A stretch of DNA of 64,000 nt from an uncultured Pseudomonadota bacterium (GTDB taxonomy: Bacteria > Oederibacteriota > Muellerivitia > Muellerivitales > Muellerivitaceae), in assembly GCA_963836235.1 (NCBI GenBank), contig CAWIIP010000001.1, forward strand, positions 320,001-384,000. The letters are read 5' to 3'. Of this stretch, positions 48,482 through 64,000 are shown in pieces. The position numbers were made by a program, and so were the translations under genes. The notes below the pieces were generated by a model, which searched no databases, was not told the origin of the DNA, and saw nothing but the letters and a program-made list of their open reading frames with translations. Numbering within the stretch: position 1 is the first letter of the stretch; each line of letters starts with the position of its first letter.

Positions 48482-48730
48482 CGGTTTCGCTCCGTTCGAA
48501 TAAAATGACTGCCTGCCGCTATTTTCCACAATAGGCCACCAACTGGTCTATCCACAAAGCATATCTGGCTTCGCTTTCTGCTTCCCCCAAAAATATTTTC
48601 TCCCCATCGACCCAAAAACCCTTGTGGTTATTTGACTTTTAGACCGGTCAAAATTACTGCACTAGACAAAAAATATTTTAAGGGTTTAGCCTGTTTTCCG
48701 TTGGTTAAAACTTGCTCTGAGGAGGCTGTC

Positions 48731-50986
48731 ATGGATGGCGGACAAACGCCCACGCTGGAAACCCAAGTTGGAGCCCTCGATGACCTTTTAGCCGCCTTGC
48801 CGGAAATGTTCCCCGGCTTCCAGGAAATCCCCCTCCCCAATATCCGCCCCAACCCGGAGAACCCCGGGCCGCCGATTACGGAGCAACAGATAGAGGAACT
48901 GGCCGATAACCTGAAGGAAAGGGGCTTGGTGAACCCCATCCGGGTACAACCTGACCACCAGGCTCCCCTAGCCGGGGGTGCCCAGCCCCACCCGCAGAAC
49001 CCCCGCCTGAAGGCCGATGGCAAACCTTGGGATCTGGCGGATTTCAATTTCATCGTCCTTACCGGGGAAAACCGCTACCGGTCTGCCGGGCGGCTTCAAT
49101 GGCCGACCATCAAGGGCACTATCCTTAACCCGACGCCCTTGGAAGCTGTCGAAATCACCCATTTGGACAATGCCACGCGCAATAGGGGCTGGTGGGCGGA
49201 CTACCAAAGTATCGAGCGGGCCATCAAAGCCGCCCCATACCTGACCCAGAACCAGATTGCGACCCGGTTAAAGCTAAGGTTGGAATCGGTCAACTGGGCG
49301 TTAGGGCTTTTACCCCTCCTAAACGCCGAGGCGAGGGCGTTAATTATTCCGATTCGGAATAATTCAAATAAGGCAAATAAGGGTATTTCGGAGAGTGCGG
49401 CCTCCTGGCTGGCCGATCTAGGGCCGGGAACCGGTCTGAAGCGGGGTGTACGCAAGAAAGACCCTCTTGCCGGTTCCCCTTCGGAACCGGCACAAGCAAA
49501 TCAAGGGCCTCGGCTTGTGGCCTCGGCCCAGCTGGACGGCTCGAACACCCCGAAACTATGGCCCTACCCTCCCATCCCTCCGGAAACCCAGGACCTGGTT
49601 CGCCGGGCTCTGGTGGTGGCCATAGACCACCAAATGATAGAAGCCCAGGTGAAGAGGCTGGTGGAGGCGGTCAAGGGGGGTCAAAGGCCGGAGGATTACG
49701 ACCCGGCAAAGGCCAAGGAAGGGTTGAACCCTTCGACTGGCTCAGGGTGGGCCACTTCGACAAGCTCAAAGCGGCCTACTTCGCCTCAACCAAGCCCAAC
49801 GCCTGCCGGCGGAAACAACTCCCCAACCCACACTGGCTTTTGGAAGTTCCTTTTCGACTATGCCAAGCAATCCTTGGTGAAGAACCTGGACCATACCATC
49901 AAACACGCTTTCAAGCGGATCGTGGCGCAGGCGGTTGTTTCGGGGGTTCTCTTTTTAATCCTGGGGTTGGTGGTGTTCCTCTTCTTTCCTAGATCGCAGG
50001 GCCGGAGGATGGCTTGGCTACCGCAGATGGAGCCGGCACCCATTGGCCTTCAGCCAAGGGCAGTAAACACCACGAGGATACAAACGGCGGTTGAACCACC
50101 AAGGGCACCAAGTTCACCAAGTACGGCGCAAACCACTTCCGGGGTTGGAAACAACACCTTGAACCAAACGGCATCTCCAAATCCAACAACAGTTGTTGGA
50201 ACACTAAGTTCACCAAGTGTAGCGCAAACCAATTCGCCCACTTTGACAACGGCAAACGCGAATATGGTTTTATCGGGAACTGGGTCTGCCATAGGGCAAA
50301 CGCCGGAACCCGCCGCGGCGCAAACGGCGCCGACCCCCAAGCCCACGGCTTTGGAGAAGATGGCTTCCGCGCACCACCCTAAAAGCAAAAAATCAAAAAA
50401 GAAAATAAAGACCGCTTCAAACCAGTTGACCCGAATGGAAAAGAACGCCCGCAAGGCGCTGGAGTTCGCCCGGCACTATTACGGATACGACTACAAGAAC
50501 ATGGGCCCCTGGTTTGATTTTATGAAAAATTCAATAAAGGACGGTATGTACGACTATTTCATGAGCAAGCATTATCCCCCGGACCAGCTCAAACACATTA
50601 CGGAAAGGAAATTCCTCATGTCCTTCCAACCCACCCAGCCCGTCAAGTTTTTGGAGCCGGATAACGTCGCCGATTATTTTCTCGTGGAGGGCACCATGAC
50701 CAAGCGCACGGATATTCACAAACCGAACGAGTTAATCACCCAAAAACCCGTAGCGGTTGAAATCGGTTTTGTCCGTGAAACGGACGAAGAGGAAAAAGTT
50801 TTCTATTTGGAGGAATTGTCGCGGGACAAGGCCAAGAGGCTTTTGGCGGATTCGACGGGGCCTGCCCTGAGTTTATCGCAGGGCTCACCGCAGGCGGGTG
50901 CTTCGGCTTCGCCCCAAGAGGACAAAACGGCCAAAGCCGTCGGGGATGTCCTTGGCGAAGCGGCTAAAAAAACTTTGGGGTTTTAA
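48731..50986 (+). CDS. ParB/Srx N-terminal domain + HTH + TM + extracytoplasmic domain fusion
   Basis: RBS GAGGAGG; IRPNPENP..I.ELADNLKERGLVNPIRV...GENRYR ParB box; LTQNQIATRL HTH; one TM; Pro/Thr linker; C-terminal alpha/beta domain. Confidence 0.8.
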   Translation: MDGGQTPTLETQVGALDDLLAALPEMFPGFQEIPLPNIRPNPENPGPPITEQQIEELADNLKERGLVNPIRVQPDHQAPLAGGAQPHPQNPRLKADGKPWDLADFNFIVLTGENRYRSAGRLQWPTIKGTILNPTPLEAVEITHLDNATRNRGWWADYQSIERAIKAAPYLTQNQIATRLKLRLESVNWALGLLPLLNAEARALIIPIRNNSNKANKGISESAASWLADLGPGTGLKRGVRKKDPLAGSPSEPAQANQGPRLVASAQLDGSNTPKLWPYPPIPPETQDLVRRALVVAIDHQMIEAQVKRLVEAVKGGQRPEDYDPAKAKEGLNPSTGSGWATSTSSKRPTSPQPSPTPAGGNNSPTHTGFWKFLFDYAKQSLVKNLDHTIKHAFKRIVAQAVVSGVLFLILGLVVFLFFPRSQGRRMAWLPQMEPAPIGLQPRAVNTTRIQTAVEPPRAPSSPSTAQTTSGVGNNTLNQTASPNPTTVVGTLSSPSVAQTNSPTLTTANANMVLSGTGSAIGQTPEPAAAQTAPTPKPTALEKMASAHHPKSKKSKKKIKTASNQLTRMEKNARKALEFARHYYGYDYKNMGPWFDFMKNSIKDGMYDYFMSKHYPPDQLKHITERKFLMSFQPTQPVKFLEPDNVADYFLVEGTMTKRTDIHKPNELITQKPVAVEIGFVRETDEEEKVFYLEELSRDKAKRLLADSTGPALSLSQGSPQAGASASPQEDKTAKAVGDVLGEAAKKTLGF

Positions 50987-50992
50987 CTATTA

Positions 50993-51024
50993 GTTGTCCA
51001 CGACGGGTCCCCGCAAGGAACAAC
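50993..51024. repeat. 32-bp palindromic site, copy 1 (variant right arm)
   Basis: GTTGTCCACGAC-GGGTCCCC-GCAAGGAACAAC. Confidence 0.85.
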
Positions 51025-51198
51025 CCATAGGTGCTATTTTAGCAAAATGTCGAAAAATTATTGTCCCCTCGTAACAAAGAGTCTGGCTGGACTTCCTCCG
51101 AAAAAATAGGCATCTGAAAGGCGAGGCGAACCTAAAGTGTTGAATGTTGGCTCTTTGTTTCAGTACCTTCAAAGCTCGCTAGCCGCGTTGTGATCTTC

Positions 51199-52051
51199 TC
51201 ATTCCTTCACAGCATGAGTTTTTATTCCGCGTCCTAAAACACCTGCTAATTTCTTTTCATCATCGTTCAGCCGATGGAATAGATCGACCGCCCTTTTATC
51301 ATATCCCGCCCGAACATAGATCTTCCGAATTCCATTGATCGATATCTCTTTCAAACGATCATCCTCGCTGAATAAATTTTTTCGAAGAATATCAAAACAC
51401 CAGTCGAAAACCATGGCGTTATCAGAAATAATTGACATCGCCTTTTCCCGAACGGATTTTCTCGAATCTTTTAACGATCTTGTCACGATTTGTTTTTCCG
51501 AAGAATCTTTCAGATCACCTATTAAATTCATAATGCTCAAAACCGACTCCTGATCGTCGATTCGCGTGTCGAACGCCTTTAATAAAACATTACCTTTGTG
51601 ATCGATCTCCATGTTTTTGAGACACGTCAAATCGTCCTCAAAATCCTTAATCCCAACATAAGGTAAAAGGTATTTTCCCAATTCAACACTCTGACTTTCG
51701 CAAATTTGGTGCATGGCCTCTTTCTTAACCAAATTGACCTCTTTGGAATTTTCAGAACTCAACAAAATATTTTGAAGAGCTTGCATTCTAGGAACCGACT
51801 TACTATTTCGAAGTTCTACCAAAGCTTGCAAATTGTAGAATTTGATAGATGCCATCCATGACAACAATGCGTCCGATGTGCTGTCGTTGATAGATGCCAA
51901 ATATTTCGCAAGCTCATCCAAGTTCGTTTTAGGATCCGCTTTCGTCAAATAAGGAAGGACCCAATCCGTGCCGATCGTCGTTCCTAATTTCCGAACGATG
52001 TCAAAGACAGTCTTTTGGTTTTGTCTCTCAATAACGGCGTCAACTAACCAT
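51199..52051 (-). pseudogene. 3' part (HEAT-repeat-like) of the NHL/HEAT gene split by IS1380
   Basis: Joins in frame with 53761-55718 once the IS and one TSD are removed (..DEKSL|KWLVDAV..); LKDSRKSVREKAM HEAT-like repeats. Confidence 0.8.
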
Positions 52052-52056
52052 TTAAG

Positions 52057-53760
52057 CCCGGATTTCCCAGATGGAATTTCCTTTCGAGTATAATAAGACA
52101 ACGTTTGGCCATATAAACAAAGGTTTTTCTTCGTGTTGGGGAACATGAGAGGGGGAAATGCAATGGGTGAAGGCGGAAAAGACGCTCTTCGGGTGGTTTT
52201 TGACCCTGGCCTCAAGTTGGAGTTCCATGGTGCGAAGGTCACTTCCGATGGCGGGTTGATTCCCTATCGCGAACTCGACGAAGCTTTTGGTTTGACTGAC
52301 AGAACAGAAAACATCCTTTGGGATCGGCGGACCGGTAAGAATACGCAACACACGATTACGGCGCTTCTTCGCCAGTCGGTATTCAGCCGCTTGGCCGGTT
52401 ATGAGGATACCAACGACGCAGAACGCCTGAGTGTCGATCCTGCGATGCGGCATGTGATCGGAGGACGGGCCAGGGAAAAACAGGCCGCCTCCACCAGCCA
52501 GATGGGTCGTTTCGAGACGGAGGTCCTCACCCAGTCGAAGAATTTGACCGGCTTAATTGACTTATCGGGCCAATGGATCGATGGAGTCCATGAGAAAAAG
52601 CCCATACAACAGATCATCCTCGACATGGATAGCTCAGTGAGCGAGACCTACGGGGATCAGGAAGGTTCCTTGTACAACGGTTACTTTGGCTGTACCTGTT
52701 ACCATCCCCTGTTTTGCTTCAACCAGTTCGGCGATTTGGAACGGGCTATGTTGCGCAACGGCAATGTGGCCAGTGCCCACGAATGGCGTTCGGTTCTTGA
52801 ACCGGTAGTTGCCCGCTACCGGGGTCTTTCCATCAGCCGGTTTTTCCGGGGTGACGCGGCTTTCGCCCGTCAGGAACTATACGAATACCTAGAAGACGAA
52901 GGATATCTTTACGCGATCCGCCAACCTGCCAATGCCATACTCCAACGGGAAATCGAGCCATTTTTAACCCGTCCCGTGGGCCGCCCCTCCCACAAGCCGG
53001 TTGTCCGGTTTCACAGCTTCCAATACCAAGCCGTCAGCTGGGACAAACCCCGCCGCGTGGTGGCGAAGATCGAACATCACAACGGGGAATTGTTCCCAAA
53101 GGTGGGTTTCATCGTAACGAACATGCGACGACCGGCACCCCAGGTGGTGAAATTCTACAACGGAAGAGGCACGGCTGAGCAGTGGATCAAAGAGGGAAAG
53201 TATGCGATGAAGTGGACAAGACTAAGCTGCCACGACTTCGCGGACAACCAAGTGCGCTTACAACTATTCGCCCTGGCCTACAATCTGGGCAACTTCCTGC
53301 GCCGACTGGCACTGCCAGAACTGGTGAAACATTGGTCGCTAACGACCTTGAGGGAAAAACTCATCAAGATCGGGGCTAATGTCATCCGTCATTCGCGGTA
53401 CGTTATTTTCCAGATGGCGGAGGTGATGGTTTCCCGACGCCTGTTTGCTGAAATCCTCAATCGGATACGGCTACTGGCAATGGTAAGGCCGCGAGCGCCA
53501 GTACTGCGATAACCGCAGGAAGGCATCAAGGCTTCAACCCGAGCGACTACCGCAGGATAGGTGTGCGCTCACAACGAGAATTGGCTTTCCAGAAGGTCAA
53601 TTTCAGCTTTTTTGGGCACAGAAACCTTTTCCTGGGGCTTATTTCAGTGGCCCAGGACGGAAAATTCCGGATTCGGATGGAAGAAGCGGGGGGGGGGCGA
53701 TATAATGAGAAACAAATTACCCGGCAATGTTTTCAGAGAAGGTCATCTGGGAAATTCCGG
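52057..53760 (+). mobile_element. IS1380-family insertion sequence (1704 bp)
   Basis: Terminal IRs CCCGGATTTCCCAGATG / CATCTGGGAAATTCCGG (15/17); 5-bp TSD TTAAG at 52052-52056 and 53761-53765. Confidence 0.93.
52133..53512 (+). CDS. IS1380-family DDE transposase
   Basis: TSDGG, AGYED.ND, LDMDS, YHPL, RGDAAF and YNGRG.AEQWIKEGK motifs; start may be ATG 52163. Confidence 0.95.
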   Translation: MLGNMRGGNAMGEGGKDALRVVFDPGLKLEFHGAKVTSDGGLIPYRELDEAFGLTDRTENILWDRRTGKNTQHTITALLRQSVFSRLAGYEDTNDAERLSVDPAMRHVIGGRAREKQAASTSQMGRFETEVLTQSKNLTGLIDLSGQWIDGVHEKKPIQQIILDMDSSVSETYGDQEGSLYNGYFGCTCYHPLFCFNQFGDLERAMLRNGNVASAHEWRSVLEPVVARYRGLSISRFFRGDAAFARQELYEYLEDEGYLYAIRQPANAILQREIEPFLTRPVGRPSHKPVVRFHSFQYQAVSWDKPRRVVAKIEHHNGELFPKVGFIVTNMRRPAPQVVKFYNGRGTAEQWIKEGKYAMKWTRLSCHDFADNQVRLQLFALAYNLGNFLRRLALPELVKHWSLTTLREKLIKIGANVIRHSRYVIFQMAEVMVSRRLFAEILNRIRLLAMVRPRAPVLR

Positions 53761-55718
53761 TTAAGACTTTTTTCATCTCTTGGTAGTTCAGGTTCGATAT
53801 TAAAAACCGAAGATATCTTTATGACCGCATTCCAAATCGCAAGACGCATCCCTAAATTTTCATCCTCGACATACTGATTCAATTCGTTCAAAGAGTCTTT
53901 ATTACCTACATCCGACAACAGATTCGCGGCATTGATTCGGATTTCATCATCTTTGTTGTTCAAGGTTTTATAAAGAAGTTGCAAATAATTAGCATAGTTA
54001 GACCTCAAATTCATTGAGATCGGACCATAAAAAGAAGAGCCGCCATCTCCTTTAGTTTGGGTTTCGACTCCCGCGGCGATCAAATCGAACGCCTGTCCGA
54101 AGCCGAAAACATCAGGACGGAGCAACACATGAGCAAAGACGAACTTGCGAAAAGCCGACGATCGGTTCCAAAACGGTGTTAAACCATAATAACCGTCTAG
54201 GGCATCGTCTCGAACTCCGGATAAAAACAAATCTTGCAAGACTTGTTTTTTTTGTTTTTCATATTTTTTATCCGCGAACTTGTCCAAACCGGCAATGATC
54301 GTATTTCTTTGGCCGACCCCATCTTTATAGTTTTCGATGAACTTGACGTGGGCCTCGAACGATTTCTCGCCGCCCAAAGTGCTCAAAACGTTCCAGTATT
54401 GATAAGAAAAATGTGGTTCTCCGTTCAAGAAACGCTCGGCCAATTCATCCGCTATACGCGTATTTCCCTCCGTGATCAATATCTTTTCCGCGCTACTCAT
54501 CGAATCATTCGCGTCATTGGTCAAGATTTCCGAAACCGCGTTCTGAAGCGAGGCGTTTTCATTTTTTATTCCCGGCTCCAAAAACTTATCATGGACGACC
54601 ATATCCACTTCCCGAACACGAAAGTAGCCGTCATCGGCGATATATAAATTGCCCCAACGGTCCACGGTGATCCCCGCGGGGGGCCACATCGCGGCGGAGA
54701 TGGCGGGTACACCATCGTTCATATCGCCCTGCAATCCGTTTTTTCCTGCCACCACCGTGATAAGTCCATCAACGTCCACTTTTCGTACGTTGTATTTATA
54801 TTCATCTTGGATATAAAAATTACCGAACCGGTCCGTCGCCAAGTTGATGGGTGACATCGCCGCCATTGTCGCCAGGCCATCATCCCCCGAATATTCAGTA
54901 ACACCCGTACCCGCCACGGTCGTGATAGTTCCATCCTGATCGATTTTCCTGATGCGATGATTTTGGTAGTCAACGAACAAAAGATCCCCGGAAGAATCAA
55001 AAACCATTTTGGCTGGAAGGTTGACCTCCGCGTTGATTGCTGGTCCCCCGTCGCCGCTAAACCCTGCGGTTCCATCCCCGCAAACCGTCGTGATGATCCC
55101 ATTTTGTTCGATCTTGCGGATCCGATTGTTATAGGAGTCGGAAATATATATGTCACCGTTCTGATCCACGGCGATACCGCTCACCCAATTCACCTTTGAT
55201 TGTGTCGCGGGGCCTCCATCACCTGAATAACCTGACACGCCACAACCTGCCACGGTGGAGATTAGGTCATTGGTATCCACTTTTCTCACCAAATAATTTC
55301 TAGCGTCACTGAAATATAGATTATTTTGACCGTCGGTGGTCAATGCACAAGGATTGTTCAAAGGCACCCAGATCGCTGGATTCGTTTGACCAGGACCCGA
55401 AGCCCCACATTTTCCATTTCCCGCTATGGTTCTAATGATTCCATGAGCATCAATTTTTCGAATACGGCAATTATCAAAATCGGAAATATAGATGCTGCCT
55501 GAAGAATCAGAACAAATCCCGATGATTTGACCCAAACCGGCGTTTTTGGCCGGCCCTCCATCGCCCGAATAACCAAAACCCATACCTGCAATGGTTTTTA
55601 TAATCGGTATATGTTTCTTGGGATTGTCCGCCTTCAATTTAATTTCGTCAGCCGCACAAATACTGGCTGAAAATAAAAAACAGAAAATAAAAAAAATCAT
55701 ATAACCTTTCAATTTCAA
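53761..55718 (-). pseudogene. 5' part of a secreted NHL (teneurin-like) repeat + HEAT repeat protein, interrupted by IS1380
   Basis: Signal peptide; GYSGDGGPA..A.. / IYISD..NNRIRKI repeats; NKDDEIRINAANLL HEAT-like. Confidence 0.85.
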
Positions 55719-55739
55719 ATAAATCTCCCTTAAATATCA

Positions 55740-55771
55740 TCTATCCACTACGGATCCCCGTCGCGGACAAC
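55740..55771. repeat. 32-bp palindromic site, copy 2
   Basis: TCTATCCACTAC-GGATCCCC-GTCGCGGACAAC. Confidence 0.8.
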
Positions 55772-55816
55772 CTTTTCATCGGTTCACGTATTCTTTATTC
55801 TCTTCGTACCTTTTAA

Positions 55817-56269
55817 TTATTTTCCATCAAACTCTATTTGGGTTGATTTTAACTTTATCATTTTCAAGATTTCCCTGATGGTTTTCCTAGAAAATGGCTT
55901 GCCTATAAAAAGGGGCGCGTAGGGTTTCATTTCTTTGTAATAAATATCCACTCCACGAAGAATACCCTCATGAGGTGTAACCTTTGTAATGTCCGTCCAT
56001 TGAACCCGTCGAACAAATTTTTTGTAGCTAAAAAATGAATATTCGAGCGCCTCATCATCGATCTTAATCTGAGATGTCCAATAAATAAATCCATAGATTA
56101 CCCAGCCAAATCCCCCTAGCAAGAAAAACAAAATAATCAAAAGATAATTTTTTAAATATAACCCGATTACGAAGGGAAAAATAAAATTAGAAATCAATAA
56201 CGCTGAAGAGAAGCACAAAGAACCTATTGAGCTTCGATAAACGGTTAATAATCTTAAATTTTCATTCAT
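55817..56269 (-). CDS. Membrane protein with bacterial PH-like domain (cassette)
   Basis: Two TM helices then IKIDDEALEY...VQWTDITKV; ATG 56269; AT-rich. Confidence 0.65.
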   Translation of the reverse strand: MNENLRLLTVYRSSIGSLCFSSALLISNFIFPFVIGLYLKNYLLIILFFLLGGFGWVIYGFIYWTSQIKIDDEALEYSFFSYKKFVRRVQWTDITKVTPHEGILRGVDIYYKEMKPYAPLFIGKPFSRKTIREILKMIKLKSTQIEFDGK

Positions 56270-56283
56270 AAAGCCCTTTTCGA

Positions 56284-56315
56284 TTGGTCCACCCAATCTC
56301 CCCGTAAGGAACAAC
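56284..56315. repeat. 32-bp palindromic site, copy 3 (degenerate left arm, variant right arm)
   Basis: TTGGTCCACCCA-ATCTCCCC-GTAAGGAACAAC. Confidence 0.65.
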
Positions 56316-56351
56316 CTTTAGAAGCTATTTTAGCCAAATGTCGAAAAAAGT

Positions 56352-56383
56352 ATTGTTTACTCCGGGTCCCCGTCGTGGACAGC
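56352..56383. repeat. 32-bp palindromic site, copy 4
   Basis: ATTGTTTACTCC-GGGTCCCC-GTCGTGGACAGC. Confidence 0.8.
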
Positions 56384-56393
56384 AAATTCGTTA

Positions 56394-56993
56394 TTAAACA
56401 ACGGATGGCCGGTTTAAATTAAAAATATCAATCCGCTTTTCTTCAAAGAGGTTTTCCAATTTCTTCGCCCCCTCATTTTCCACCAACCTGTATTCCTTTT
56501 CGGATATCGGGACAACCAATAGCCAAGTTAATTTCATGGTTTCAAGTTGGATTGTCTTATTGAGTTTGGCTGACCCTTCCCATGAGGAAGGTGGAGCGAA
56601 GAACACATGCCGGAGAGTTTTGGAGGCTTTATACATCGATACAACATCAGGGAATACCGCGCCCGGACAACAAAACCATTTTGAATTAATGACCGAAAAC
56701 GCAGCCGTCGCCAATATGTTTTCGAAATCCTTAAAATTCGATCCACAAGCTCCTACCAATTCCACCCTTGTATCAAATTCTTTTCCATCTTTTATTAAAG
56801 GATAATCTGATAAGCCTAACGTCCCATAAGAAGTGACCCCCACCTGCGGCTTATCAATACTTTTAAAAATATTAACGAATGATTTTTCCTTCTCATCCCC
56901 ATGGAGTATCACCCGTGGATCACCACCAAAAGTTTCTACCAGCGTTTTATATATCTCTTTTTGATCTTTGGTCGGCTTATCATTACGTTTCAT
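56394..56993 (-). CDS. Suppressor-of-fused (SUFU) domain protein, putative immunity protein (cassette)
   Basis: SYGTLGLS, RVELV, PG.VF, WLLVVPISEKE...G...LE..F...DI.NLNRPSVV SUFU pattern. Confidence 0.88.
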   Translation of the reverse strand: MKRNDKPTKDQKEIYKTLVETFGGDPRVILHGDEKEKSFVNIFKSIDKPQVGVTSYGTLGLSDYPLIKDGKEFDTRVELVGACGSNFKDFENILATAAFSVINSKWFCCPGAVFPDVVSMYKASKTLRHVFFAPPSSWEGSAKLNKTIQLETMKLTWLLVVPISEKEYRLVENEGAKKLENLFEEKRIDIFNLNRPSVV

Positions 56994-57012
56994 CTAATAT
57001 TCCTTTTAATTC

Positions 57013-57044
57013 TTTGTCCACGATGGGTCCCCCTCGTGGACAGG
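57013..57044. repeat. 32-bp palindromic site, copy 5
   Basis: TTTGTCCACGAT-GGGTCCCC-CTCGTGGACAGG. Confidence 0.88.
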
Positions 57045-57061
57045 TCAAATTGGTGGGAATT

Positions 57062-58276
57062 GTTGTTCCTTTTGGTCCAATTGAAAACCATTTTCTCCAA
57101 CCGCCTCAAGTAGGATTCCGAAAACAACATTTTCAGTTCCTTCCGCAGAAAATCCTCCTTCTCTTGGGGAAGCCCCAATAGGAGAGCAGTCCCATAGATC
57201 ACCATTTCAGCCGAAAGACGGTGATAACTGGTGGAAGCCTCAAAGTTGCTTCCTTCCTCATGAAATTGGCTTTCAACCTCCTTTCGAAGCTCGGAAGCCG
57301 AGAACCGAAGCCAATGATCCGTGGTCTTGGATGTAGGCAGATAGGCGGAAGCGAAAAGCAGGCCTACGATATCAGCCAAATAATGATTTGAACGAAGGTC
57401 GGGGTCCCATTCCAGGTGATTATAAATATGGGAGGCGTGCGCGAAAACGCTCTTGGCAAAAGCTTTCTTAAAAGACTCATCCCAAACAACGCCAAAGACA
57501 ACGAATAGATCGTAAGCCAGAAGCCAATTAGCCACTCGAATGGCCACATCCATCGTGCAAGACCAATTCACTCCAAAACGGGGTGGATTGGTGGCTGTAA
57601 AATCCAGTATCTGATTACGAAATTCACTGCGCAAAACCTCTTTTTTCCCTTGGTCTTGGGACAGGCCGAAGGCCAAGGCCAATTGAGGCAGGTGCTGGGC
57701 CCGGGCCAGTTCCCAAGGCACCTTCACATCCACCCCCGGAAGACGGCCATAACGGACGTTCGGGCTCCAAGTTTTTTCATCCCATCGGAACCCCGATTTG
57801 AAATCCAATTGCCAGTCGATAGGACTATAATTTTGTTCGATCAGACCCCACAAACGCCGGGACGTTTCCATGTTTGCCGGATTTATCCTTCCTATTAGCC
57901 ATCGACCCTCCGAATCGGCCGTGACCGGAACCTCAGGAGGAAACCGGTGACCTTCGACTCCTTTGCAATCTAAGCCGTAGGCGACCCGGACCCATCCCGA
58001 ACCCAGCAAATTAAACTCGTGATGGATGAAATGCTCCGTGTGGTCCCGGATAAGTCCGACAGGAAATAGAGCAGGATCGGGAAAAAGGCCCTTTATGATG
58101 GAGACCAGAGGCCCTTCCGGAAAGCGGGTCCGAGGTTTAAAGGTTGAGCTTTGGGCATCCTCCCTCCGTCTCCAGGTTTCCCAATAACGGATTTTAACTT
58201 TCCGGATAGCCTTCCGCACAACTATATGTGGCGGCATGGAGACGGCTCGTTTTATATAATGGAAAAAATTTTTCAA
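57062..58276 (-). pseudogene. Heparinase II/III-like protein, C-terminally truncated
   Basis: IDWQLDFKSG, DVKVPWELAR, NPP..GVNW...MDVAIR, SNHYLAD and EASTSYHRL motifs; lacks the C-terminal domain and runs into a repeat site. Confidence 0.75.
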
Positions 58277-58288
58277 CCGCGTCTCTCT

Positions 58289-59578
58289 TCAAACTAAGTT
58301 TTTAGGCTGTTTTAACCATTGACTGCTGATCATTCGGTTCTGATGATTTCCCCCAGGTTGGTACCATCGCTCCAAGGCCCAACAGGCCATCCGAGCCGAA
58401 AAAATCCAACCCGTGACATACGTCCCAATCACGTAAAAATCCCACGGGGATACCACTATTCCGTTTGCAGCATAAAATCCAACGCAGACTAGGAAGGGAA
58501 GGATTTCCAAAATCGGAGGTTTGACCCAAAAAACCAGGACCAAACCGATAACCATACAACGAATGAGTTTAACCCGCATATAAAACAATTTAGCCAATGC
58601 CTGGTGAAGAACAAAACCGGGATGTTGGGCCACGATATCCAAAGTCAGCCTTCGCATGACTTCCTCGTATTTCTCCGAATACATGGGCACACTTGGATCA
58701 ATCTTTCGGATAGCCCGGTCACCTGCCCCATCCCCATAAATTGGCTGATAGGGATTGGGAAGATAACCCAGTGCCCCGTAAATGGGGTGCCAAAAGGGAT
58801 GCCGGATGGGCCGAAGGACAAATGAGGGGTTATGGATTCGCAAAAAGGCGTCCCGGTGGTTTGCAAGGATATTGAATTGGATTTGAGGTAAAAAGAACCC
58901 CGTTGCCAAAATGGCCGCCAGTCCCAAACGCCGGCTCCAGGGAATTCCCTCTAAAGACATGAACCAAAAAAAAACGAATAAAAGGACTCCCGTGGAGGAA
59001 TGGATTCTCATCAGTTCCGCGTAGCCCAGGATGATTCCCACGCAGAACAGAACCGCTTGGGCCGCCCACGAACTTTGAAAAGGCCGAACTTTTAAGGACA
59101 CCAGCAGGGGGAGAATGGCCAAGGCTGGGTATCCCTGAATACTAAAGGTGTCGCCTATCGGAACCAACTGACGGAGAGCTGAAAAAACCAACAGAAATGC
59201 CGCGACCCGGGCGGGCCAACTCGGAAAAGCCCTCCAAAAAGACCACAAGGCGATGGCCGTGCAAAAAAAAGGGATCAGGGAAAAAAATAACTTTAGGCTG
59301 AAACTTAAATTCAATCCAAAAATCCGTCCCAAAATCGGCACAAAATAAAATATTCCCGGGTCGTCCAAGGAAATACCGGGAATATAACCGGCGGGAACCC
59401 ATTGGGAATTCACCCAACTGACCAAATCCGGCGCTCCGAGAGAATGGGCGTCAAAACAGCCTTGCAAAAACTGGAGCCGGTTGGGATTGATGTCAAAGTT
59501 CATGGTGAAGAAACGCTGGAGATTGCCAGGAAAAAAAACTTCCAAAAGAGTGTTCATGGTCTCCCTCAATGTATTCAT
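58289..59578 (-). CDS. Polytopic membrane protein of a polysaccharide locus (GT-C-like)
   Basis: About 10 hydrophobic segments; ATG overlaps the GT stop (ATGA). Confidence 0.65.
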   Translation of the reverse strand: MNTLRETMNTLLEVFFPGNLQRFFTMNFDINPNRLQFLQGCFDAHSLGAPDLVSWVNSQWVPAGYIPGISLDDPGIFYFVPILGRIFGLNLSFSLKLFFSLIPFFCTAIALWSFWRAFPSWPARVAAFLLVFSALRQLVPIGDTFSIQGYPALAILPLLVSLKVRPFQSSWAAQAVLFCVGIILGYAELMRIHSSTGVLLFVFFWFMSLEGIPWSRRLGLAAILATGFFLPQIQFNILANHRDAFLRIHNPSFVLRPIRHPFWHPIYGALGYLPNPYQPIYGDGAGDRAIRKIDPSVPMYSEKYEEVMRRLTLDIVAQHPGFVLHQALAKLFYMRVKLIRCMVIGLVLVFWVKPPILEILPFLVCVGFYAANGIVVSPWDFYVIGTYVTGWIFSARMACWALERWYQPGGNHQNRMISSQWLKQPKNLV

Positions 59579-60526
59579 GATCTCTCCTTGAGCTTTTCGA
59601 TGATCTTCCGGGTGTGTTCTTTCCAGGTGTACTTGGCTACGCACTCTTCCTGGGCGGCGCGGCCCAGCCGTTCCCGCAGGGGCTGATCCCCGGCCAAAAC
59701 CTTCAGCCCCTCTTTTAAAGAATCCTTATCTCCCGGCTTGACCATCAAGGCCGTTTCATTGGGTTTTAATATTTCCCCGATCTGGTCCAGGTTGGAAGCC
59801 ACAATACCCTTACCCATGGCCATATACTCGAACAACTTGGTGGGTGATCCAAAAAAAGGCGTTCCATCCGGGTTCGGAATATGGGGCGCCACCAGAATAT
59901 CGCAAGCCGCCAGGTAAGCGGGGCCTTCTGCCTGGGGCATGGTACCAGTCAGAACGCAAAGGTCCTTAACATAATACTTCCCGATGATTTCCTTCACCAA
60001 AGGCATGGCGATCCCGTCACCAATCATCAAAAGCCGCGTCTCGTCTCGGAATTTCGTGTCCCCCCGGGCCAGTTCGGCGAAAGCCCGGGCCAGCACTTCC
60101 GCCCCATGCCATTTCCCGAAAGTGCCGATGAAACCCAAAACTTTTTTTCCCTCCAAGCCGTATCTTTTGCGGATGGGGGACCCATCCACTTGCGGCGAAT
60201 ATTTGTCCGTGTCCACCCCGTTGGGATTGACCAGGATTTTTTCCGGATCAATCCCGCGCGCGGTCAGTTCGTCCTTCAGGGGCCTGCTGACCACCACCAC
60301 CAAATCTGCGGCTTGCAGGTTCACCTTCTCGATTTTTTTCGAAAGAGCCTCATACTTTAGGGGTTTTCCCCAGTGGCGGCTCACCCATATTTCGGACCCG
60401 TTATATTCCAGAACGAAGGGAAGTTTCTTCTCGCGGGCCAGCCGGAGCCCCGAATAGTCGTTAAGGCTGTAACGCTGGTAAATGAAGGACAAGGTTTCCT
60501 CCCCGAGGGAGGCCAGGGCCAAAAGG
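59575..60526 (-). pseudogene. GT4 glycosyltransferase, N-terminally truncated
   Basis: NPNGVD, GFIGTF..WHG and SPTKLFEYMAMGK motifs; begins mid-domain with an in-frame stop at 60535-60537 upstream. Confidence 0.78.
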
Positions 60527-60895
60527 GTTGCACACTATCCTTTTTGCGACAGGCATGTGCAGGGTCTCACTATCGCGGACAAACAACCATTCAATTCCTT
60601 TAAACCCCATCGAAATGCCATGGGTCAGTTTTACAAACGCTAACCACACCATTAGATTAAGTAAAACTTCAACTGAAATTCCCAATGCCGGTACTTGATC
60701 CATCTTGAGGTGTAACGTCCATAGGAGCGACATACCTAGCAACTTACCAGGCATAAGCCCTAATGCACCAACTCCCCCAAACACGAGCCCGATAACCGAA
60801 TCGTATGGCAAATGAAACAAGTGACTTGGGCACCAACAAAAAAGTTCAGCGACCACCTGCCAAACAATAAATACAGTCCAAAACTTTCGGTTCAT
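60461..60895 (-). CDS. Small membrane protein (cassette); ORF reads through the degenerate site
   Basis: ATG 60895; about 3 hydrophobic segments; the C-terminal ~40 aa are probably read-through. Confidence 0.55.
   Translation of the reverse strand: MNRKFWTVFIVWQVVAELFCWCPSHLFHLPYDSVIGLVFGGVGALGLMPGKLLGMSLLWTLHLKMDQVPALGISVEVLLNLMVWLAFVKLTHGISMGFKGIEWLFVRDSETLHMPVAKRIVCNPFGPGLPRGGNLVLHLPALQP
60527..60583. repeat. Degenerate/split site, copy 6
   Basis: Left-arm-like GTTGCACACTAT (60527-60538); GGGTCTCACT plus right arm ATCGCGGACAAA (60572-60583). Confidence 0.5.
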
Positions 60896-60935
60896 ATAGT
60901 GCCTTTCAATAATTTGGCTCCCTACGGTAAGCAAC

Positions 60936-60967
60936 CTTGTCCACGAAGGGTCCCCGTCGTGGACAAC
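60936..60967. repeat. 32-bp palindromic site, copy 7
   Basis: CTTGTCCACGAA-GGGTCCCC-GTCGTGGACAAC. Confidence 0.9.
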
Positions 60968-60983
60968 AAAAGTTTTTTGATGT

Positions 60984-61364
60984 TTACAACTTGTGAAAAG
61001 CCTTCAACTCCCCGTAATAATCCACATAAGCCAGCACCGCCATCAACCCATAGTACCCAACGATCAGCCACCTAGTTTTTTTGAGGTTATTTTTTAACAG
61101 AAGTTCCCAGGTCATTGCAAAAATAAAAGTTTGAACGGGAAAAAAGAAAGGAATCCAATTTTGGGTAAATCCAAAGAACAGCATTGAAAATGGAAAATGC
61201 AAATAGAGGTTCAAGTAAAAGATCATATACCGGCCCCAAAAGGAAGTTCCCATATCAATCAACTTATTTTCCACAACGATAAAGGAAAGGGTTATGTATA
61301 AAAAATCCAACCCCACCCAAAAAATGATATTCTTCCAATTTATTTTTCGAAGTTTTTTAATCAC
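60984..61364 (-). CDS. Small multi-TM membrane protein (cassette)
   Basis: 126 aa, very hydrophobic, AT-rich; GTG start with a GGGGAG RBS. Confidence 0.65.
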   Translation of the reverse strand: MIKKLRKINWKNIIFWVGLDFLYITLSFIVVENKLIDMGTSFWGRYMIFYLNLYLHFPFSMLFFGFTQNWIPFFFPVQTFIFAMTWELLLKNNLKKTRWLIVGYYGLMAVLAYVDYYGELKAFHKL

Positions 61365-61391
61365 GAGAACCAGCTCCCCGTTGCGGACTAA
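61360..61391. repeat. Degenerate site, copy 8
   Basis: ...AGCTCCCC-GTTGCGGACTAA; left arm eroded and overlapping the start codon. Confidence 0.5.
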
Positions 61392-61450
61392 TTAATTAGC
61401 TTTTCATATACTCAAAAAATTGGTCTCAGGCCGACATTATCCATTTCGGG

Positions 61451-61482
61451 CTTGTCCACGATGGGTCCCCGTCGTGGACAAC
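61451..61482. repeat. 32-bp palindromic site, copy 9
   Basis: CTTGTCCACGAT-GGGTCCCC-GTCGTGGACAAC. Confidence 0.9.
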
Positions 61483-61490
61483 TTCAAACA

Positions 61491-62771
61491 TCACTTAACA
61501 ACATAAGAAAAACGGCGTTCCGTTTGGAAATGGAACACGACCTTTCCATCGAATTCATCCAAAAGCCGATCGGACTTCTGGCCGGTCGCCGGTTTCTCAA
61601 CCGTCTCCTGGAGTTCCCAAAGTTTCTCGCCTTTCAGGTTCAATAGGACAGCCGATCTCCCCGCGATCGTTTTTTCCTTGTTCGGCGATTTCAGGAAGCT
61701 GCCCAAAGCGATCATGTCGCCATCCTCATAAGCCCGCCCCTCAACGACCCAAAGGGGGTCCATATCTTTTGGAATAGGGACCTCCAAGATCGTCTTTCCA
61801 TCCTCCGCACGTAAATAAACCACCTTCCCTCGAGCCTTGTCGTAAAAAAGGAGGATGGAATCGTTCTTCACGGCACCTATGAAGAAGGGGTTTGTCCCAA
61901 CCCCGGTTGCTTGGCCGGGAGACCCTTCGATACTCAGCCAGCCTTGGTCCGGCACATTGGCGGCTTCATAGGTGAACAGGATCTTGCCTTCATTGCTGAT
62001 ACCCCACCATTGGTCATTTTTAAGCTTGTAATTACTGGAGCCTGTCAAAAGGCGCCTCCCATCCCCGCTGATCCAATCGAACTCCGCGGGCGCCGGGAAA
62101 GTCTTATGGTCCTTCGGATCATCGGTGGAAACCAGATGGATGGTCACGGGGCCGCGCCACTCGGTCATATAAGCCAGGTATTTCCCATTCTCGGAGAGCA
62201 TCTTGTTCATGACGCCGTCCGCCTCAAAATAGGTCTTTCCCGTGGCATCGCGAAGGGCGAGGCTTTGAAGGGTCCCGTTACGGCCGATGCAATAGGCGAT
62301 GGTGCCCGAGGGCTCGATCATTTTCAAAAAAATGATCGGGTCCGGCCCGCCCGATTCGCTCCAAACTTCCTTGTCACCGTCAAAAAAGGACACCGACGAA
62401 CTCCCCGAGGTGAGCCGACAATTGGTCGTGGACTCCATCCAAAAGGCGTAACGTCTGGGCCTTGAGAAATGGACATAGGCCGACTGGTAGCACCAATCGT
62501 TGTCCCCCTCCGGTTTCGGGTTTTCCACGTTTTTGACCAGACAGTCATCCTCAAGAAAGAACGGTTTCGACTGTCGAATAATGTAACTTTCCTTCCCCAC
62601 TCGCACCGTCACCTCCTTGGCATTCGGCAACACTTCGGTCACTTTCAGAGCCGGAATGTAATGGAAACTAAGTTTATCCAAGGTAGGATCAAGGGCCTGG
62701 GCAAAACTTAATGTCGTTAATAAATAGGTCCAACCAAAATAAAGAAATAGCAATCTCAAATGAAAAGTCAT
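61491..62771 (-). CDS. Exported beta-rich (propeller-like) hypothetical protein (cassette)
   Basis: ATG 62771 with a GAGGGGG RBS; signal peptide (SFA); LSENGKYLAY, ISGDGRRL and G..LW repeats. Confidence 0.65.
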   Translation of the reverse strand: MTFHLRLLFLYFGWTYLLTTLSFAQALDPTLDKLSFHYIPALKVTEVLPNAKEVTVRVGKESYIIRQSKPFFLEDDCLVKNVENPKPEGDNDWCYQSAYVHFSRPRRYAFWMESTTNCRLTSGSSSVSFFDGDKEVWSESGGPDPIIFLKMIEPSGTIAYCIGRNGTLQSLALRDATGKTYFEADGVMNKMLSENGKYLAYMTEWRGPVTIHLVSTDDPKDHKTFPAPAEFDWISGDGRRLLTGSSNYKLKNDQWWGISNEGKILFTYEAANVPDQGWLSIEGSPGQATGVGTNPFFIGAVKNDSILLFYDKARGKVVYLRAEDGKTILEVPIPKDMDPLWVVEGRAYEDGDMIALGSFLKSPNKEKTIAGRSAVLLNLKGEKLWELQETVEKPATGQKSDRLLDEFDGKVVFHFQTERRFSYVVK

Positions 62772-62829
62772 CAAAACACCCCCTCGTTCCGCCACGAAAA
62801 AAGATGCCAGACCACCCTGACCCTTTCGT

Positions 62830-62861
62830 CTTGTCTACTACGGGTCCCCAGTGTGGACAAC
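62830..62861. repeat. 32-bp palindromic site, copy 10
   Basis: CTTGTCTACTAC-GGGTCCCC-AGTGTGGACAAC. Confidence 0.85.
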
Positions 62862-62900
62862 TTCCTAAACTTGGCCGGTTATAAGTTTATTCGACAACCA

Positions 62901-63794
62901 TCATTTCCCCTTGCCGTTCAAGGCCTCGAATCCAGAGATGACGTCGAAAAGTTCCTCATCTATTCCGCTTTGGCGCAACCGATGGAAATTAACGTTGAGT
63001 TCCTCCAACAAATCGTCGATGTTTTTATCCGCGCGTTGCATCGCCGCCAGGCGGCTGGCGTTCTCGCTGGCTAGGGATTCGGCGCAGGCCCGAAAGAGGG
63101 AAACGAAAAGGTATCCGTTCAGGAACGCCCGTAAAGTCTCGGCGCCCACGCCCATGACCTCGGGCAGGAATCCCGTCGGCCAGGCGAGGCCGGCAAGCTT
63201 GCGTCTCCAGTTTTCGTCCAGTGGCAGAAGCCGCTGGGTCACGGGCGCGTAAACGGCCCCGGATGTCGGGCGATTGTAGAAAAGGTGGAGTTCGCTGATT
63301 TCACCCTTGTCCCGGCGCGCCTCGCTTTCCATGAGGATCTGCCCGACGAGCGGTGTTATGGCCTTGACGGAATTCGGCACGGTTAATACCCCCATCAACG
63401 GCAGGCCCGCTTCCGTAAGCCGCGCGTAAACACGTTCCCCGACAGCCCAGACCTCGGCTTTGGATGGAAATGCCGAAAGGGTTTTTACGGCGAAATCCGC
63501 AACCACTTCGTTAAATTGACCCACCAGGCCCTGGTCCGAGCCGAAAACGACCGCCCCAATGCCTCCCACTTTTTGTTTCCCGTTCCTTACCTCGACATCG
63601 GAAACCGGCCCGCTTGCCCTGAAGCAAACACCCAAACCCAGTTCAACGGCATGATAGTAGTCGGCCAGGGCTAGAACCGAATTCTCGTATTGCCCGATAC
63701 TGGACGCGGCCACGGCCTTCATTGTTCGGACGACGGATTGAAGATCCCCGGCACCGGCGATCTTTCGACGAAGGCTGGCGGTTGTGTTACTCAC
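62901..63794 (-). CDS. atpG: F0F1 ATP synthase gamma subunit, alternative/N-ATPase type
   Basis: LRRKI..A.DLQSVVRTMKA.AA, GSDQGLVGQFN, SLASENASRLAAMQRA.KNI and RQ..I.EEL.DV.SGFEA motifs. Confidence 0.93.
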   Translation of the reverse strand: MSNTTASLRRKIAGAGDLQSVVRTMKAVAASSIGQYENSVLALADYYHAVELGLGVCFRASGPVSDVEVRNGKQKVGGIGAVVFGSDQGLVGQFNEVVADFAVKTLSAFPSKAEVWAVGERVYARLTEAGLPLMGVLTVPNSVKAITPLVGQILMESEARRDKGEISELHLFYNRPTSGAVYAPVTQRLLPLDENWRRKLAGLAWPTGFLPEVMGVGAETLRAFLNGYLFVSLFRACAESLASENASRLAAMQRADKNIDDLLEELNVNFHRLRQSGIDEELFDVISGFEALNGKGK

Positions 63795-64000
63795 GATTTA
63801 ACCTCGGGTCCGGGCCTTCTTTTGCCTCCGTTTTGTTTTCCGGCTGGATCAAAGGTTCGGGTTTCGGCTTTATCTCCGTCTTGGCTTCCGGCTTGGACCC
63901 CGACCGGGGCTTGACTGGGGTTTCCGTATTGACTGCCGTCTTTGGCTCGGATTTGGCTTGGAAGGGGGCAAGCGAATCGCGGGCGGTTTGGATAATCATT
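63787..64000 (-). CDS. atpA: C-terminus of the probable N-ATPase alpha subunit (partial, Pro/Lys-rich tail)
   Basis: Overlaps the atpG start; IIQTARDSLAPFQ followed by a low-complexity tail; runs off the window. Confidence 0.6.
   Translation of the reverse strand, partial: MIIQTARDSLAPFQAKSEPKTAVNTETPVKPRSGSKPEAKTEIKPKPEPLIQPENKTEAKEGPDPRLNRE

Follow-up and report, generated by a model that had tools for sequence, protein, structure and literature searches.

Why a row of unrelated genes should be separated by copies of one short palindrome, and whether such genes are mobile, are the questions raised by a locus at positions 50993-62861 of a 64,000-nucleotide (nt) stretch of DNA, hereafter the window, which corresponds to C1:320001-384000 of a genome of 3.97 Mb in 5 contigs (G000). 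The lineage consists of soil and peat bacteria of candidate division FCPU426, known from metagenomes alone, and the relatives compared here are metagenome bins, whose genomes are coded G and whose site-bearing loci are coded L. A first-pass annotation of the window had read the palindromes as a site-specific platform for the capture or shuffling of gene cassettes, and this view is supported by the clustering of the sites, by homology breakpoints that fall inside them and by the sharing of units across arrays and genera. The best explanation is probably that the palindromes are double-stranded recombination sites which delimit mobile gene cassettes and are served by an enzyme encoded elsewhere.

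A repeat search of positions 50000-64000 places the eight sites reported earlier (50993, 55740, 56284, 56352, 57013, 60936, 61451 and 62830) in one 32-nt repeat family, the window copies being 66-100% identical to a reference copy (60936), all in register and on the + strand; the array genes of G000 run opposite to this + notation. The 32-mer of the first-pass annotation, allowed up to 3 mismatches, matches two places (60936 and 61451) and matched in 0 of 100 shuffles, and a 20-nt query made of its core and right arm, likewise allowed 3 mismatches, finds seven places, all in 50993-62861, and none in shuffles. The absence of sites from the first 50 kb was likewise found in a whole-genome scan (up to 7 mismatches), which was empty in window 1-50992. 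The two degenerate sites that had been proposed are real, but each is a different thing: 61372-61391 is a half-site, consisting of core and right arm without the left arm, and 60527-60583 is a copy of an unrelated 35-nt repeat (60529-60563) abutting a degenerate right arm. The sites adjoin gene ends, the distance from stop to site being by recount 9, 11 and 17 nt for the genes ending at 61491, 56394 and 60984, and the enclosed genes are, by Pfam, unrelated to each other. They lie on the minus strand, as had been stated, except for the transposase gene of an insertion sequence (IS) at 52133-53512, which is on the + strand.

Across G000, the 30-mer TTGTCCACGACGGGTCCCCGTCGTGGACAA identifies 63 sites at up to 6 mismatches and 70 at up to 7, and the consensus of these 70 is TTGTCCACGAC GGGTCCCC GTCGTGGACAA (left arm, core and right arm, respectively). 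The consensus written down earlier is thus upheld genome-wide, with the correction that the same 30 bp can be parsed in two equally valid ways, as 11-bp arms around an asymmetric 8-bp core (11+8+11) or as a perfect 14-bp inverted repeat around an asymmetric central TC (14+2+14). Conservation is strongest in TGTCCA/TGGACA and in the core and weaker at four inner arm positions, while the left half of the site is less conserved than the right half; many of the relatives' loci were retrieved via the right half of the site, and the G000 set alone is unbiased for arm conservation. When the 70 sites of G000 were examined for pairing, the base pairs 8-23, 9-22, 10-21 and 11-20 held 16, 21, 19 and 26 left-arm variants, of which 0, 1, 0 and 1 were compensated on the opposite arm; the outer pairs and the GGG/CCC pairs are likewise uncompensated, and the first eight pairs in 323 sites of relatives follow the same trend. 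Because arm changes go uncompensated, selection would appear to act on the sequence and not on its pairing, which argues for a protein dimer binding double-stranded DNA and against a hairpin, the reverse of attC and of repetitive extragenic palindromic (REP) elements. The arms are also not all of one kind. A variant right arm, GYAAGGAACAAC, is present at window 51008-51057 and 56299-56348, in both places together with a conserved extension of 33 nt (88% identity between the two), and is also seen as AAGGAACAA, and the same arm class, AAGGAACA, comes after arm and core in six or more loci of relatives, suggesting a second arm type. In eight places (L023, L029 at two places, L031, L046, L062, L089 and L096), the upstream arm and core are followed by C(G)TTCGA...CTCAGGGCAAATTATA and the second arm is absent; this may be another element that inserts at the border of core and arm.

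The sites of G000 are neither dispersed nor randomly oriented, as might be expected of ordinary intergenic repeats, but form 11 co-oriented arrays. The 63 sites fall into 11 clusters of 3-14 sites and 5 singletons; 58 of the 63 have a neighbour within 5 kb, where 1000 random placements gave 8.8 on average and 22 at most, and all adjacent pairs (47/47) share the same orientation. Polarity also tracks the sign of the GC skew, and hence the replichore, on every contig with at most two weak exceptions: + sites lie at negative skew (C5, C2 up to approximately 1.2 Mb, C1:360-440 kb) and - sites at positive skew (C4, C2 beyond 1.47 Mb). Along transcription, and by crude longest-ORF calling with a minimum of 50 codons, the 100 nt upstream of the site include the end of an open reading frame (ORF) at 56 of the 63 sites (median distance about 15 nt), and the 80 nt downstream include a start at 47 of the 63 (median 43 nt). 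All 11 arrays lie downstream of ordinary genes, on contigs of 0.3-2 Mb, and together they amount to 61.6 kb or 1.55% of the genome, with a G+C content of 48.0% against 50.6% for the genome. The largest (C2:1192092-1205569) has 14 sites and nearly one gene per interval. Fixed polarity relative to transcription and replication would make the cassette genes readable from upstream promoters and would keep them on the leading strand.

The content of the arrays is heterogeneous and includes SUFU, heparinase-like, glycosyltransferase, outer membrane protein (OMP) barrel, LOG, AraC, hemerythrin, peroxiredoxin, PIN and BrnT/BrnA proteins and two HAD hydrolases, together with many ORFs that have no Pfam match; toxin-antitoxin (TA) pairs are among the array genes, and the housekeeping gene hflX lies between sites in both G000 and G045. 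Among 813 ORFs from the 107 site-bearing loci of relatives, the largest cluster has 19 members (NHL-repeat proteins), followed by an unknown 134-aa protein (10), group II intron reverse transcriptases (10), Sel1/RDD (9) and PIN (8). An IS66-family element lies inside the C2 array.

That these units move individually is best seen where related genomes are compared. Gene order is not identical in relatives, since homology of the window to the same-genus genome G001 stops inside the site at 62830: the atpG protein next to this site is 100% identical in G001 and 95% in G045, the DNA of G000 and G001 is 99.9% identical over 1160 bp from window position 64000 down to 62841, which is the border of core and arm, and is unrelated beyond, and the 90% identity to G045 at the same flank ends at 62845. 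Read in gene sense, this junction is TTGTCCACACT GGGGACCC GTAGTAGACAA in G000 and TTGTCCACACT GGGGACCC GCATTGGAAAG, followed by unrelated sequence, in G001. The upstream arm and core therefore belong to the conserved flank and the downstream arm to the DNA that follows. Within G000, C2:1195350-1196625 and C4:57528-58803 are 100% identical over 1276 bp comprising a site, an NHL gene and a second site, and the flanks past the outer site edges are unrelated; a BrnT/antitoxin unit at C2:1196607-1197285 recurs with 91% identity at C5:251281-251958, where homology begins at the core and non-site DNA replaces the left arm.

Sharing between genera follows the same pattern, with single units between sites 75-100% identical to units of other arrays or genera that sit in other neighbourhoods. 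The 434-aa unit of the window (61469-62831) is 97% identical to G045:C4:776035-777394, which is not the contig of atpG, and the four genes between two sites at C4:140629-143486 are 100% identical to a stretch of G018:C32 over 2858 bp, the next 173 bp, starting at the site, matching another G018 contig and the neighbours on C32 being different. A TA unit is found at 82-84% identity in G001, G045, G005 and G021, aligned from site to site in the first three, and in G001 it stands beside a unit that in G000 sits in a different array. The OMP unit is 97% identical in G018, various genomes have HAD, LOG, PIN and BrnA-like units of 80-88% identity whose alignments end at or inside sites, and at least 10 further high-scoring segment pairs end at sites. 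Orthologous flanking genes between these genera are just 75-80% identical, so that units at 97-100% imply either recent transfer or binning error. The arms, for their part, are too conserved to show if their variants move together with the cassette.

The sites that place the exchange most closely are hybrids. In five cases (C5:251270, C4:146641, C2:164697 and two in G007), non-site DNA is joined to core and right arm, and the reciprocal form, left arm and core joined to non-site DNA, occurs in G045 (L147); both forms retain the 8-bp core. Such hybrids are, as far as sequence can tell, the expected remnant of a circle with one site inserting into a secondary target that shares the crossover region only, and an exchange between two full sites cannot produce them.

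The site is confined to one FCPU426 family and one neighbouring genome. A 22-base pattern with up to 2 mismatches finds it in 21 of 24 other genomes of the family and in the one genome that represents a second family of the order, and in 0 of 15 genomes from eight other families of the phylum. Copy number per family genome ranges from none found (G017, 97% complete) to approximately 60 in G018 (99% complete), which has the most site matches (124 counted on both strands). In an exact 19-mer scan of 185,579 species genomes, at least 107 stretches matched, with about 4 chance matches expected; 80 of them comprise 52 labelled candidate division FCPU426, 23 with uninformative labels and 5 under other taxon names with single matches, and viral contigs gave no exact 19-mer match. 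In G045, a 65-kb island upstream of hflX carries sites interleaved with the 35-nt repeat, all in one orientation, and the matching place in G000 has two sites only.

In the model that follows from these comparisons, each site would consist of two 11-bp protein-binding arms around the 8-bp asymmetric core, and a cassette, read along transcription, would be made up of arm B, a leader of about 40 nt, one or more genes, about 15 nt, arm A and core, so that a circularised cassette would re-form one full site. A recombinase acting in trans would exchange strands within or at the edges of the core and would thereby insert, excise and reshuffle cassettes by conservative site-specific recombination. 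Arrays would be seeded at secondary sites behind chromosomal genes and would grow by insertion at existing sites. Conservative recombination, a circular intermediate and read-through expression are what we infer from the arrangement, and the recombinase is most likely of the tyrosine type, as suggested by the anatomy of the sites and by the hybrids that keep the 8-bp core.

The cassette platform proposed earlier is supported. A linked recombinase, for which a look beyond the window had been suggested, was not found: none is linked to any array, and no integron integrase is present. The ten TIGR02249 matches in G000 reach at best 40.9 bits against a cut-off of 265, no integrase gene or attI stands at an array head (in the window, atpG precedes the array), the tyrosine recombinase closest to an array is 5.4 kb from it and the others are at least 19 kb away, and ten annotated clusters of the 813 ORFs from relatives' loci include no tyrosine or serine recombinase. 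G000 holds eight tyrosine recombinases, namely six paralogues, one 425-aa protein and one Xer-like protein of 353 aa, which is single and is encoded at window 8834-9895 on the minus strand, 41 kb from the array. The Xer-like protein scores 168.9 bits on XerC and 154.6 bits on XerD, both under the equivalog cut-offs, and 77.9 bits on TIGR02249, and its alignment to XerD and to a XerC-like protein spans the regions that we take to be box I (GLRVSE), box II (HVLRHS) and the C-terminal Tyr. Single-copy orthologues at 56-77% identity are present in 23 of 24 family genomes and in the genome of the second family; the 15 genomes from other families, none of which has sites, give matches of just 27-35% identity, with two matches in 6 genomes and none in 4. 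Since it alone among the candidates has the right phyletic range, the Xer-like protein is the best candidate, and XerA, XerH and XerS, as homodimeric single-Xer systems, provide a precedent that would suit a site with two like arms. The assignment of the enzyme to this single Xer-like tyrosine recombinase is nevertheless a tentative one. As regards IS110, which was considered as a source of the enzyme, no match was found in G000, though IS110 genes lie near sites in other genomes.

Several observations weigh against the cassette model or against its proposed enzyme. No recombinase adjoins the arrays in a conserved way, the Xer-like gene occurs also in G007, G017 and G019, family genomes that yielded few sites or none, and its co-distribution with the site is at lineage level only and is confounded by phylogeny. 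A dif-like singleton with these arms at a skew switch was sought and not found; arm pairs with spacers of 4-10 bp yielded four further cases (three of 7 bp and one of 8 bp), none of them at a skew switch. The core variants GGC, GCC and GGA are found in place of GGG side by side in single arrays, which is awkward if recombination partners need strict core identity. As arm A and core are nearly invariant, most alignments of shared cassettes run through them and do not place the crossover, whose placement rests on the handful of hybrid sites. Both ends of the 434-aa unit in G045 abut intron-like sequence and not clean sites, the BrnT/antitoxin pair, a site-bounded unit in four genomes, has no flanking site in G021 (L144, G021:C9:27191-27788), and 100% identity between genera could in part reflect binning error. 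Among public reads, only four soil runs contain shares of the window, small ones of 0.06-0.13 and all as contigs, and in those over window 50000-64000 there is no joint at any site and no circular form, a result that tells neither way on excision. Loose ends occur only at 60935-60970 and 60526-60563, where the contigs represent copies of the two repeats from other contexts; one contig, from run X2, begins at 61453 and includes the 434-aa unit in a variant form (97%).

It has to be asked, then, whether something else accounts for the pattern. The cassette model could be right and the enzyme a different one, which we regard as possible without expecting it: one of the tyrosine paralogues, a serine recombinase of 278 aa or an enzyme not recognised as such. 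The six paralogues (367-386 aa, 57-70% identity; C2:508543, C2:1185612, C2:1373842, C4:195984, C4:244739 and C5:272301) belong to a family that is found in 26 of 31 family genomes, four of the five genomes that lack it have few or no sites found, and one paralogue is the gene located 5.4 kb from the largest array. However, the paralogues occur in conserved multi-gene modules of their own, as do integrases of integrative elements, with a small gene (about 85 aa; 84-91 aa) directly upstream of five of the six, often with conserved 303-aa and 598-aa genes alongside, and in 0-10 copies per genome across the family; furthermore, the G001 locus syntenic with C2:1185612 has the recombinase and neither array nor sites, and G044 (84% complete) has at least 12 sites and no paralogue found. 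The serine recombinase, with Resolvase and Recombinase domains (C2:163827-164663; G045:C17:12093-12881), ends 34 nt (G000) and 38 nt (G045) from a site, and a perfect 14-bp inverted repeat around an asymmetric TC would fit a serine crossover at the central TC. Yet full-length relatives of this protein have 512-570 aa, no more than 5 of 31 genomes have an intact orthologue, the site-rich G005, G021, G023 and G010 yielded none, G018 has just a fragment of 141 aa, and hybrids that keep the whole 8-bp core are a better fit to the overlap region of a tyrosine-type enzyme than to a 2-bp crossover. It is also conceivable, though unlikely, that the site is an operator or a signal for a nucleoid protein and that units, once their DNA has been taken up, are swapped by ordinary homologous recombination on 30 bp of homology with no dedicated recombinase at all. 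A sequence-conserved, double-stranded site of two-fold symmetry is indeed operator-like, no linked recombinase was found, and homologous exchange between near-identical arms and cores would yield the same pattern of shared units; it would not give reciprocal hybrids of half-site and core joined to non-site DNA, which are impossible from two full sites, and 30 bp is at the lower limit for RecA-dependent exchange. The genes at the sites, moreover, have no common function or regulon logic, and an operator has no need of a fixed polarity (47/47 pairs) in a near-symmetric site.

Two other views would leave the intervening genes immobile or make the site an RNA signal. A selfish or host-domesticated repeat of the REP/RAYT kind (REP-associated tyrosine transposase) or resembling a miniature inverted-repeat transposable element (MITE), spreading by itself behind stop codons, is quite improbable here, even if lineage-specific intergenic palindromes shortly after stop codons, three Y1_Tnp genes (RAYT-like, about 317 aa) in G000 and a housekeeping gene, hflX, flanked by sites in two genomes are what such a repeat might leave. 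The Y1 genes are flanked by a motif of their own (AAAGGGGTCAG...) and not by the site, none lies within 10 kb of a site, and Y1_Tnp was not found in G018, the most site-rich genome; in addition, the arms lack compensatory changes, the copies are clustered and not dispersed, and neither synteny breaks inside the site nor single-unit homology of up to 100% between genera would be expected of a self-inserting repeat. The least probable of the readings, and a very improbable one, is that the site works at the level of RNA or transcription, as a hairpin between cistrons which terminates, stabilises or is processed, its polarity following that of the genes. Perfect copies do allow a stem of 13-14 bp, and the sites lie between co-directional genes, close after stops and in fixed polarity relative to them; but none of the eight window sites is terminator-like, the 17 terminator-like hits found compare with 21.3 +/- 5.4 in shuffles, Rfam gave no match at E ≤0.1, arm variants disrupt pairing without the covariation that a hairpin would demand, and in-site breakpoints and unit-wise sharing are left unexplained. 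A-rich sequence follows the site on the sense strand, and the other strand is weakly T-rich ahead of the site and not behind it, which likewise speaks against a terminator. As the first-pass annotation had also held, the sites are neither CRISPR (clustered regularly interspaced short palindromic repeats), given start-to-start spacings of 68 to 4747 bp with genes between them, nor attC, given their 30 bp, their conserved sequence and their uncompensated arm variants.

If the palindromes are recombination sites, as we think probable, the arrays resemble integrons in outcome: rows of mostly single, unrelated and co-oriented genes with a recombination site right after the stop codons, toxin-antitoxin cassettes, and recurrence of one and the same cassette across arrays and hosts. 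Group II introns invade the sites and IS110-family genes occur close to them, much as integrons have group IIC-attC introns and IS1111-attC elements, and polarity is fixed relative to replication in both (here by GC skew). On the other hand, there is no IntI and no attI or integrase at the array heads, and there are 11 arrays per genome behind ordinary genes; while attC sites are imperfect hairpins of 55-141 bp conserved in structure rather than in sequence, the present site has 30 bp, is conserved in sequence and has GTT...AAC in the opposite order. The system works like an integron and fails its defining molecular features, namely IntI, attI, attC structure and linkage of integrase and array.

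Nearest in type of site and in action in trans are the dif modules of Acinetobacter plasmids, along with other elements that exploit Xer, with which the present system shares short core-type sites with 11-bp arms and discrete modules, TA pairs included, that occur in many contexts. An Xer/dif site has 28 bp, with two 11-bp arms and a 6-bp centre, and pdif sites alternate in orientation and lie on plasmids; here, by contrast, the arrays are chromosomal with sites in direct repeat, the spacer has 8 bp, there is a single Xer-like protein rather than XerC and XerD, and the site has no sequence likeness to dif. In dif modules the action is that of Xer, for which the Xer-like protein is here a candidate. 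The recombinase of dif modules is reported to act in trans from a housekeeping locus (PMC6449649, PMC13141974, PMC12907356), and their sites are reported to have one arm more conserved than the other and to be targets of IS elements (PMC10132070). The rAID-1 arrays of Bacteroidales are similar in bearing repeats and in their XerD-family enzyme, the latter having here its candidate counterpart, and one unit of the window carries a gene of the SUFU family, an immunity-like one; the defining feature of rAID-1 is that a XerD-like recombinase gene heads every cluster at its 5' end (10.1101/471110). In the present lineage, no recombinase adjoins the clusters, their content is not mainly immunity genes, and the phylum and probably also the repeat are different. 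As for REP elements and bacterial interspersed mosaic elements (BIMEs), the likeness lies in lineage-specific intergenic palindromes behind stops in tens of copies. REP/RAYT systems consist of hairpin-forming repeats that flank their cognate Y1 transposase gene, whereas here there is no pairing constraint and no dispersal, and the RAYT-like genes are not flanked by sites and are absent from the finds in the site-richest relative. Literature searches, mostly at the level of listings and abstracts, turned up no account of the site or of FCPU426 cassette arrays, and neither did the outline of 10.1101/2025.10.07.681051 or passages of 10.1101/471110.

Within the window, the array starts behind atpG (ATP synthase gamma, PF00231, 7.9e-56; 62901-63794, minus strand), the conserved gene upstream of it. 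An accessory ATP synthase operon stands at this array start (window 62901-64000 and beyond, C1:382901-387781); of the 31 family genomes, no more than 7 have close homologues of its gamma subunit (62-100% identity), and C5 carries another gamma gene, a distant one. All eight sites are on the + strand and all units on the minus strand. Site 8 (62830-62861) is the first along transcription, its right arm and core being part of the conserved atpG flank, and is followed by unit 6 (61491-62795), which encodes a 434-aa ORF with no Pfam match. Site 7 (61451-61482), which matches the 32-mer query, and site 6 (60936-60967), the reference copy, enclose unit 5 (60984-61364), a 126-aa ORF with no Pfam match, and the half-site. 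Unit 4 (57045-60935) has several genes, namely a heparinase II/III-N-like gene (56990-58276), a 451-aa ORF (58289-59644), a GT1 glycosyltransferase (59575-60522) and a 157-aa ORF (60461-60934), and includes the 35-nt repeat; homologues of these genes (69-75%) lie in a region of G001 where the scan gave no site. Site 5 (57013-57044) overlaps the last codons of the longest ORF at 56990-58276. Unit 3 (56394-56993) encodes a 199-aa protein of the SUFU family (PF05076, 2.2e-23), which we take to be immunity-like, and site 4 (56352-56383), found by both repeat family and genome scan, is separated by an empty interval of 36 bp from site 3 (56284-56315), a degenerate copy of the variant-arm class GTAAGGAACAAC with 66% identity to the reference.

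Unit 2 (55817-56314) is a 165-aa ORF with no Pfam match, and site 2 (55740-55771) has 5 mismatches to the 30-mer. Unit 1 (51025-55739) is one NHL/HEAT-repeat gene (Pfam TEN_NHL, NHL and HEAT_2), with 53733-55718 as one part and the remainder in 51199-52242, split by an IS at 52045-53762 whose + strand transposase has 459 aa (DDE_Tnp_1_4, 2.8e-132); the IS borders were set by copies elsewhere in G000, four at 99.5-99.8% identity and one at 87.9%. Site 1 (50993-51024) has a perfect left arm and core with a right arm of variant class GCAAGGAACAAC, and forms the end of the array far from atpG. Just beyond it, in an ORF of 784 aa containing ParB_N (48632-50986), short DNA repeats at window 50026-50235 match relatives at many places, 88-100% over 30-60 nt, and are probably a repeated coding motif.

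The second repeat, TGCACACTATCCTTTTTGCGACAGGCATGTGCAGG, is 35 nt long and has 10 copies in G000, 9 of them identical and one with 2 mismatches: window 60529-60563, C1:405294, C1:431428, C2:189971, C2:917799/917904/919268 and C4:58813/59821/60778. Some copies are co-oriented at a spacing of about 1 kb and continue a palindrome array (C4:58813-60812). The 65-kb island of G045 holds 12 identical copies with IS200-type TnpA genes (about 144-175 aa) between them, and the repeat may be the end of an IS200/IS605-like element. Group II introns are more directly associated with the palindrome: two copies in G000, 99.8% identical (C1:223030-224988 and C2:1476543-1478501), lie inside a site, both one base past the core, the 5' end of the same intron follows the core at two sites in the genome of L056, and a different intron (GTGCG start) splits a site of G045 (L127, about 9394). 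Reverse transcriptase ORFs near sites, among the largest ORF clusters, number 10 in 8 of the 107 loci.

Integrons are the textbook bacterial device for stockpiling and reshuffling single genes, and to our knowledge few looser parallels exist beyond them, namely plasmid dif modules and rAID-1. Judged by sequence comparison, the observation stands: an uncultured lineage has its own, new variety of site-specific cassette platform, with an enzyme that is so far a candidate. An integron-like outcome would here be reached through a much simpler double-stranded core site of 30 bp, with no recombinase at the array and with many arrays per chromosome. It is an attractive, if rather speculative, idea that the family has turned a dif-like site and a single housekeeping Xer into a genome-wide capture device, free of integrase, attI and folded site, through which cassettes are traded between genera. 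If the mechanism is confirmed, it would mean that cassette platforms evolved more than once, would offer a second model for the capture of promoterless genes behind host operons and would provide a compact new pair of recombinase and site as a tool. Gene flow in FCPU426 would also become easier to follow, in that the site could serve as bait for cassettes in metagenomes, as attC does for integrons.

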